Part shown: piece after piece, positions 10,940 through 11,013 of the stretch
How positions within the stretch are numbered: the stretch's first letter is position 1
How the letters are laid out: every line of letters starts with the position of its first letter
From: Escherichia phage EcF-vB
Length of the DNA: 64,000 nt
Sequence record: PV683228.1
Direction: 5' to 3' (one strand)
Notes under the pieces: generated by a model
Told to the model about the DNA's origin: nothing
Database searches by the model: none
Seen by the model: only the letters and a program-made list of their open reading frames with translations
Made by a program: the position numbers and the translations under genes

Positions 10940-10944
10940 AGTTG

Positions 10945-10961
10945 CTCTCTCTCTCTCTCTC
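10945..10961. repeat. (CT)8 dinucleotide repeat, (GA)8 on the coding strand, just upstream of the start codon at 10939
   Basis: ctctctctctctctctc read directly. Confidence 0.8.
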
Positions 10962-10984
10962 GTCTACTAGGTTTGTTTACAGGT

Positions 10985-11013
10985 ATACTATATAAATTCT
11001 TTTATTAATGCAA
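10985..11013 (-). promoter_or_regulatory. putative sigma70-like promoter: -35 TTGCAT / 17 bp / -10 TAGTAT
   Basis: Read on minus strand upstream of the (GA)8 tract. Confidence 0.35.

Follow-up and report, generated by a model that had tools for sequence, protein, structure and literature searches.

The window (the whole 64-kb stretch of DNA that we analysed) belongs to a Felixounavirus-like (Ounavirinae) myovirus of Escherichia, Salmonella and Shigella. On its minus strand, the gene for a putative N6-adenine DNA methyltransferase is followed by the genes for a 279-aa and a 77-aa protein (Table 1), and a GA dinucleotide repeat lies in the leader of the 279-aa gene. Since terminator-like hairpins bracket the three genes, they look like one transcription unit, in which the repeat is part of the intercistronic RNA. 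The 77-aa gene is probably translationally coupled to the 279-aa gene. The three-gene unit (9865..11904) is accessory: of 261 related phage records with a match to the 25 kb around it, about 10 have the unit. A role in DNA modification or anti-restriction is no more than a guess. Exact-protein look-ups with the methyltransferase and with the 86-aa protein of 17952..18212 returned no record.

Table 1. Positions of the GA tract, its neighbouring features and the sister GA-type Shine-Dalgarno (SD) tracts in the window.
Feature	Coordinates	Strand	Remarks
Terminator-like hairpin after rIIB, upstream boundary of the three-gene unit	11925..11942	-	
Putative N6-adenine DNA methyltransferase gene (upstream gene)	11005..11904	-	PF02384, E 2.3e-5; PADLOC MTase_II, E 1e-21
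Candidate internal promoter TTGCAT-17-TAGTAT, weak	10985..11013	-	Hexamers 11013..11008 and 10990..10985
(GA)8G dinucleotide repeat in the 279-aa gene leader, SD-derived and variable in length	10945..10961	-	
Spacer CAACT, tract to start codon	10940..10944	-	
ATG of the 279-aa ORF	10939..10937	-	
279-aa gene, ParB/Srx-fold N-terminal domain (modelled)	10100..10939	-	
77-aa gene	9865..10098	-	Begins 1 nt past the 279-aa stop codon; annotated in every relative as a CDS of 234 nt
Terminator-like hairpin that closes the three-gene unit behind the 77-aa gene	9839..9862	-	
Sister GA-type SD AGAGAGAG, 7 nt before rIIB start	13068..13074	-	(AG)4 in 18 related loci, (AG)5 in 2
Sister GA-type SD GAGAGAGA / TGAGAGAGA before gene 17952..18212	18220..18227	-	Invariant in 14 related loci
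Sister GA-type SD GAGAGAGA / TGAGAGAGA before gene 18258..19139 (phosphoribosyltransferase-family protein)	19145..19152	-	
Sister GA-type SD GAGAGAGA / TGAGAGAGA before gene 29783..30031	30037..30044	-	
Sister GA-type SD GAGAGAGA / TGAGAGAGA before gene 35964..36764	36771..36778	-	
GAGAGA before genes at 5721 and 8079		-	
GAGAGA(GA)-type tracts 5-7 nt upstream of start codons	6513..6518, 8550..8555, 20335..20342	-	

Searches of Pfam, PADLOC, PDB sequences and PDB profiles gave no significant match for the 279-aa protein, and neither it nor 25 members of its family had a Pfam hit. A sensitive search recovered 35 distant relatives, and in their alignment the family motif is KIDGHSRxxAW, to which IDSHAR..W corresponds in the window protein. 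With the family alignment as input, AlphaFold gave a confident model (pLDDT 92.3, pTM 0.85); a single-sequence model (pLDDT 37) was discarded. Structural comparison of the confident model gave values of 8.0 for the pNOB8-like ParB N-domain (148 residues aligned), 5.9 for PadC, 5.6 and 5.2 for sulfiredoxins, 5.1 for KorB and 5.0 for the DUF262 enzyme BrxU, all of which have the ParB/Srx fold, and the top Foldseek matches were weak and of the same family. As modelled, the 279-aa protein is a ParB/Srx-fold protein without sequence-profile membership. Among relatives whose DNA differs by 3-7%, it is 98.9-100% identical, and such identity despite the divergence of the DNA indicates that the protein is under purifying selection. 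That an orphan methyltransferase is paired with a ParB/Srx-fold protein is a useful lead for annotation.

The minus strand across the repeat and the start of the 279-aa gene reads CACTTGCATTAATAAAAGAATTTATATAGTATACCTGTAAACAAACCTAGTAGAC GAGAGAGAGAGAGAGAG CAACT ATG, and the longer stretch from the end of the methyltransferase gene reads CAC TTG CAT TAA TAAAAGAATTTATA TAGTAT ACCTGTAAACAAACCTAGTAGAC (GA)8G CAACT ATG. Tandem Repeats Finder reported an array of 8.5 copies with 100% matches at 10945-10961, which together with the minus-strand sequence confirms the statement of the first-pass annotation that a (GA)8 tract ends 5 nt before the ATG of this gene. The tract is real and beyond chance. In a regex scan of the 64-kb window no other dinucleotide repeat reached six units, and the number of eight-unit dinucleotide repeats expected from a first-order Markov model of its sequence is 4e-4 (1.6e-4 for the GA type). 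No ORF of 40 aa or more crosses the tract on either strand. An Rfam scan found nothing at the tract and returned sub-threshold chance matches only, near the downstream terminator.

A sigma70-like promoter had also been proposed upstream of the tract, and the two hexamers TTGCAT and TAGTAT with a 17-nt spacer are present in the sequence as named. They agree with TTGACA/TATAAT at 7 of 12 positions and do not appear in the list from our consensus scan, for which the threshold was 9 of 12; at that threshold the scan gave 22 hits compared with 17.8 expected by chance from shuffled sequence. The clear promoters of this phage have a TAGAAT or TAGTAT -10 hexamer, which the candidate -10 resembles; examples are TTGACA-18-TAGAAT before rIIB and TTGACT-17-TAGTAT before gene 4819..5244. 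Among the relatives, L012 and L017 have TAGCAT and L015 has TAGTTT at the candidate -10, and in the GEP101 clade the spacer between the hexamers is changed and the hexamers persist. The candidate -35 abuts the methyltransferase stop codon (TAA, 11007..11005) and lies inside the last codons of that gene, so that its conservation is uninformative. Judged by its sequence, the sigma70 promoter before the 279-aa gene is thus a weak and unproven candidate. Because the tract would be transcribed with or without an internal promoter, the question of the promoter leaves the conclusion on the tract unaffected.

The length of the repeat was compared in nine GenBank relatives with 93-97% identity over the region, and in the window. 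The intergenic region was 67, 63, 61, 57, 57, 57, 57, 55 and 55 nt in the nine relatives and 65 nt in the window, and the alignment gave 9, 7, 6, 4, 4, 4, 4, 3 and 3 GA units, respectively, and 8 units in the window. The flanks were near-identical, and the difference in intergenic length was entirely a difference in the number of GA units. We widened the sample by a 21-mer scan and by exact-protein look-ups of the 279-aa and 77-aa products, which left 37 distinct genomes once duplicate contigs were removed; 21-mer scans of IMG/VR and GTDB genomes gave no match, and a metagenome scan gave one locus. Three GA units were found in 16 of the 37 genomes and four in 13 (L015 included), whereas one genome (L028, GAGAAAGAGAG) had an interrupted tract of five, two had six, one (IME338) had seven, two had eight and two (EC106 and L027) had nine. 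A pure (GA)5 allele was absent from the 37 genomes. The L028 allele has the length of five units with a G-to-A change that breaks the repeat, and the L015 allele (GAGAGAGAGGG) has the same length with an A-to-G interruption and is predicted to be a much stronger SD (anti-SD duplex of -8.4 kcal/mol); in an alternative grouping, these two genomes form a class of "5 with an interruption". Although the numbers are small, the distribution looks two-humped, with 3-4 units on one side and 6-9 units on the other, and 78% of the genomes examined keep 3-4 units. Variation across isolates had been named by the first-pass annotation as the check on its proposal, and with 3-9 units among 37 genomes the outcome is positive.

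Fitch parsimony on a tree of the flanks of the 37 genomes required at least 10 changes in unit number, a count that is approximate for independent changes because the region behind the tree is mosaic. In the flanks, 1,665 aligned columns contained 305 substitution sites and no indel except a GG that adjoins the tract in L015. Such a contrast between the tract and its otherwise indel-free flanks supports, on between-genome evidence, the earlier suggestion that the repeat is hypermutable, and the tract is presumably unstable within populations as well. IME338 (7 units) and L013 (4 units) differ by only 0.3% in their flanks. All long alleles are on terminal branches of separate clades, where their neighbours have 3-4 units, and they make up at least five lineages, with at least five independent expansions by a conservative count. 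From this pattern we infer that the ancestral state was short, that expansions were repeated, and that they arose by slippage. The 3' end of the tract is fixed, and the spacer (CAACT, CGACT or TAATC) has an equal length in all pure-repeat alleles.

One of the eight-unit alleles, on a sewage metagenome scaffold (L021/L031), has a mosaic breakpoint right at the GA tract: on the upstream side 190 nt are identical to those of a GEP101-type genome, and on the downstream side 108 nt are identical to the window type. Because it is recombinant exactly at the tract, we dropped this allele as an independent expansion. The whole methyltransferase region is strongly mosaic among the relatives. We also considered that long alleles might be confined to laboratory-propagated isolates, an idea based on their occurrence in 0 of 11 assemblies among the first 21 genomes; it was refuted by the metagenome and SRA assemblies L021 (8 units), L026 (6 units) and L027 (9 units).

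Dinucleotide repeats can stutter in PCR-based libraries, and such stutter could in principle produce length differences as sequencing or assembly artefacts. The differences, however, invariably amount to whole GA units, the consensus assemblies were produced by many laboratories on many platforms, the flanks are perfectly alignable, and the tracts of 7-19 nt are shorter than assembly k-mers. The nine-unit allele of EC106 was seen twice, in GenBank and in the separate SRA-derived (Logan) contig L027 with identical flanks. We therefore regard an artefact as hardly credible.

A role at the level of DNA would make the polypurine/polypyrimidine mirror repeat a recombination hot spot or a non-B (H-DNA-type) structure that marks a module junction. 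The recombinant scaffold fits this idea, being free of differences to L029 over the 190 nt upstream of the tract and to the window type over the 108 nt downstream, as does the mosaic nature of the surrounding region. However, it is a single recombinant among 37 genomes, and most tracts are only 7-9 bp, which is too short for stable triplex formation. The presence of the motif 5-7 nt before many start codons points instead to a role at the level of RNA, and a DNA-level function appears quite improbable.

To place the tract among the ribosome-binding sites (RBS) of this phage, we surveyed 80 ORFs of the window over the 25 nt before their starts and found that GAGAG-type tracts are a normal ribosome-binding motif. 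The hexamer GAGAGA is not over-represented in the window (31 observed versus 35.9 +/- 5.6 expected). Tracts of (GA)3 or longer lie 5-7 nt before an ORF start in 10 of 31 cases, and those of 7 nt or more in 7 of 11 cases. Since this class of positions covers a fraction of a percent of the sequence, the start-proximal enrichment is enormous. Pairing of the GA-type motif with the anti-SD sequence ACCUCCUUA is predicted to give -5.0 to -5.3 kcal/mol through a GAG core, which falls inside the interquartile range of the SD duplexes of the genome (-7.1 to -4.65 kcal/mol; median -6.15 kcal/mol). Like ordinary SDs, the tract at the 279-aa gene is purine-rich, is complementary to the 3' end of 16S rRNA and carries a motif common to many genes of the phage; such motifs precede the AUG by 5-7 nt, here by a 5-nt spacer. 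Unlike canonical GGAGG-type SDs, which contain no repeats and do not slip, the GA tract is reiterated up to 9 times and is polymorphic in length. The leader of a homologue of the 279-aa gene with 89% protein identity also contains (GA)4.

The first-pass annotation held that the tract replaces a normal SD. This is refuted by the survey, in which GAGAGAG-type tracts are a normal SD variant of the genome. Its other suggestion, that the purines serve as an extended SD, holds in a sharper form: the tract is an expanded copy of the recurrent GA-type SD of the phage. The GA-type SD is conserved at orthologous genes in 20 related loci, and from these sequences the recurrent GAGAGAG looks like a house SD variant of this phage group, which is likewise a useful lead for annotating Felixounavirus-like phages. 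Among the papers listed by a literature search for GA-repeat Shine-Dalgarno elements, none had the phrase 'GA repeat', and a search for Felixounavirus together with Shine-Dalgarno returned nothing relevant.

We then compared the sister GA-type SDs, whose starting length is similar, in 20 related contigs of about 20 kb and the window. These SDs vary by about one unit, some being invariant and others having 3-5 units. Six or more units were found in 0 of 121 observations at the sister loci and in 4 of 21 at the present locus, where the tracts reach 6-8 units (p of about 4e-4 by a hand calculation that treats the observations as independent, which related genomes are not). Either the leader at this locus tolerates expansion better or expansion is sometimes favoured. 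This locus-specific expansion is the main observation that a neutral reading leaves not fully explained.

Next we considered whether the number of units could affect expression. The first-pass annotation had suggested an expression switch, and a classical ON/OFF phase switch would act through the spacing of the promoter hexamers or through a frameshift. Precedent of a general kind exists in the phase variation of bacterial simple sequence repeats (PMC11868660) and in phage ORF homopolymer loci (PMC12633550). The tract, however, lies neither inside an ORF nor between the -35 and the -10. It begins 23 nt downstream of the end of the candidate -10, and the hexamer spacing is therefore unaltered by unit number; it is outside all ORFs, and no frameshift is possible. 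Since the 3' end of the tract and the 5-nt spacer are fixed, changes in length occur upstream of a constant distance between SD and AUG, and the productive SD register stays the same. Both the frameshift and the promoter-spacing models were rejected on this anatomy, and a switch of the classical kind is very improbable.

The leader was also folded with 0-12 GA units, either as a monocistronic RNA that begins at a plausible start site or within the polycistronic RNA. For 3-9 units, the predicted unpaired probability of the RBS was 0.38-0.50 in the monocistronic and 0.41-0.44 in the polycistronic RNA. No strong hairpin at the RBS was predicted, and monocistronic segments of 97-105 nt with four and eight units folded with about -14 to -16 kcal/mol; the stably structured RBS that goes with a standby site was thus not found by folding. 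With an RBS of such accessibility and a tract downstream of the -10, outside ORFs and at a fixed distance from the AUG, a switch in the on/off sense is unsupported. The tract itself is predicted to open as it lengthens in the monocistronic RNA (unpaired probability of about 0.19-0.28 at 3-4 units and 0.49-0.54 at 8-9 units), whereas in the polycistronic RNA it is at about 0.4-0.6 throughout. The number of registers in which the anti-SD could pair increases from 0-3 at 3-4 units to 11-13 at 8-9 units, the farthest lying 14-16 nt from the AUG. On these models, a graded effect of unit number on translation is possible.

Contingency loci have been proposed for T2, T4 and other phages, in which homopolymers of at least 6 bp, mostly in ORFs, cause reversible frameshifts (Gomez, Barrick and Waters, bioRxiv 2025; PMC12633550). 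The GA tract resembles them as a simple repeat in a lytic coliphage whose length presumably changes by slippage and which creates diversity among progeny or lineages. Unlike them, it is a dinucleotide repeat outside ORFs and causes no frameshift, and dinucleotide or RBS repeats are not treated in that study. The TAAA tract of Neisseria meningitidis nadA (PMC2791445) and the GAA repeats of Mycoplasma gallisepticum vlhA (PMC6258824) change the spacing of transcription elements. These are also non-coding repeats upstream of a gene with unit polymorphism between close relatives; while they lie upstream of or within the promoter, the GA tract follows the candidate -10, is part of the transcript and, with its spacer, borders on the start codon.

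In E. coli, unstructured CA or AU repeat tails of 6-18 nt placed before the RBS raise translation in a length-dependent manner with a peak at 16-18 nt (Sterk et al. 2018, PMC5934652). The GA tract is similar in being a dinucleotide repeat directly 5' of, and here within, the RBS, and its natural alleles of 7-19 nt compare with those 6-18 nt. It differs in that the SD lies within the GA repeat and that folding predicts no strong structure at the RBS, whereas the standby tails were engineered, without GA, at the strongly structured RBS of the MS2 coat gene. If the tract regulates at all, a standby-type leader would be the nearest mechanistic analogue.

These comparisons bear on a contingency-type rheostat under selection, in which unit number would tune the ParB/Srx-like protein relative to the methyltransferase, for example through a length-dependent single-stranded standby platform, and long alleles would pay on particular hosts. 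It would account for tracts of more than five units being found at this locus alone out of about a dozen GA-type SDs and arising in at least five lineages, and both the openness of the tract as modelled for the monocistronic RNA and the count of anti-SD registers climb with unit number. The CA and AU tails provide a precedent in E. coli (PMC5934652), and since the gene belongs to an accessory module of about 10 in 261 records, the dosage of such cargo might matter on some hosts only. However, GA tails are absent from the standby study, and the effect reported there concerns a strongly structured RBS, whereas the RBS here is predicted to be about 40-50% open at all lengths. The long alleles are terminal while 78% of genomes stay at 3-4 units, which transient, slightly deleterious or neutral variants would fit equally. 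We consider selection for such tuning unlikely. In its boldest version the tract would be a new sort of contingency rheostat, in which the repeat itself is the RBS, standby-like recruitment of the 30S subunit sets the level of the ParB/Srx-fold partner, and host-specific selection moves the tract from 3-4 to 6-9 units; this too we hold to be doubtful.

We propose that the GA tract is a hypervariable microsatellite derived from an SD and grown by slippage, which is near-neutral or a mild tuner of translation and not an on/off switch, and we think this reading probable. An ordinary GA-type SD (GAGAGAG) would have turned into a microsatellite through replication slippage in an untranslated position between the methyltransferase and ParB/Srx-fold genes, on their mRNA. 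From an ancestral state of 3-4 units, the gain of extra units would make the tract unstable, and it would then drift between 6 and 9 units, while point interruptions as in GAGAAAGAGAG and GAGAGAGAGGG could stabilise it. Units would be added or removed with the 3' end, the 5-nt spacer and the AUG fixed, so that the SD register would be kept and the gene would be translatable at every length. Extra units would provide a longer unstructured purine leader and further anti-SD pairing registers 8-16 nt from the AUG, with either no effect or a modest graded effect on the initiation of translation. As far as the folding models go, any effect on expression is presumably small.

If slippage is all that acts on the tract, it shows cleanly, in a lytic phage, how a microsatellite can arise naturally from a Shine-Dalgarno motif; the tract could then serve to mark strains, and it would call for caution in comparisons of annotations and assemblies. 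If unit number does tune translation, phage contingency loci would extend from frameshifting homopolymers in ORFs to dinucleotide repeats embedded in an RBS. The natural allele series, with 3-9 units and two interrupted tracts, makes the question of a rheostat directly testable.

Several other repeats and elements were seen. Near-identical cassettes of about 90 nt lie in minus-strand intergenic regions before several small early genes (about 1400..4820), each composed of TTTACA, a GGGGCTTA...TAAGCCCC hairpin, AGATAAAGAGCTTTAC, and CTAAATCCTAAACTGGAGATTCAAAA followed by ATG. Within genes, a 27-nt unit forms three tandem copies at 49704..49783 (73% matches, TRF score 90) inside ORF 49571..50719, and an (ACC)5 trinucleotide repeat is located at 47389..47403 inside ORF 47173..49524. 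An in-frame (TCA)4 on the plus strand (10215..10226) encodes a run of Asp in the 279-aa protein, and (TG)5 at 12289..12298 is a short in-frame repeat inside rIIB. Among the relatives, an HNH_3 endonuclease gene (163 aa) sits between the phosphoribosyltransferase-family (PF00156) and nicotinamide phosphoribosyltransferase genes in L031, L037 and L043, about 1.4-3.1 kb into the locus, and is absent from other relatives; its presence and absence suggests a mobile homing-endonuclease insertion.
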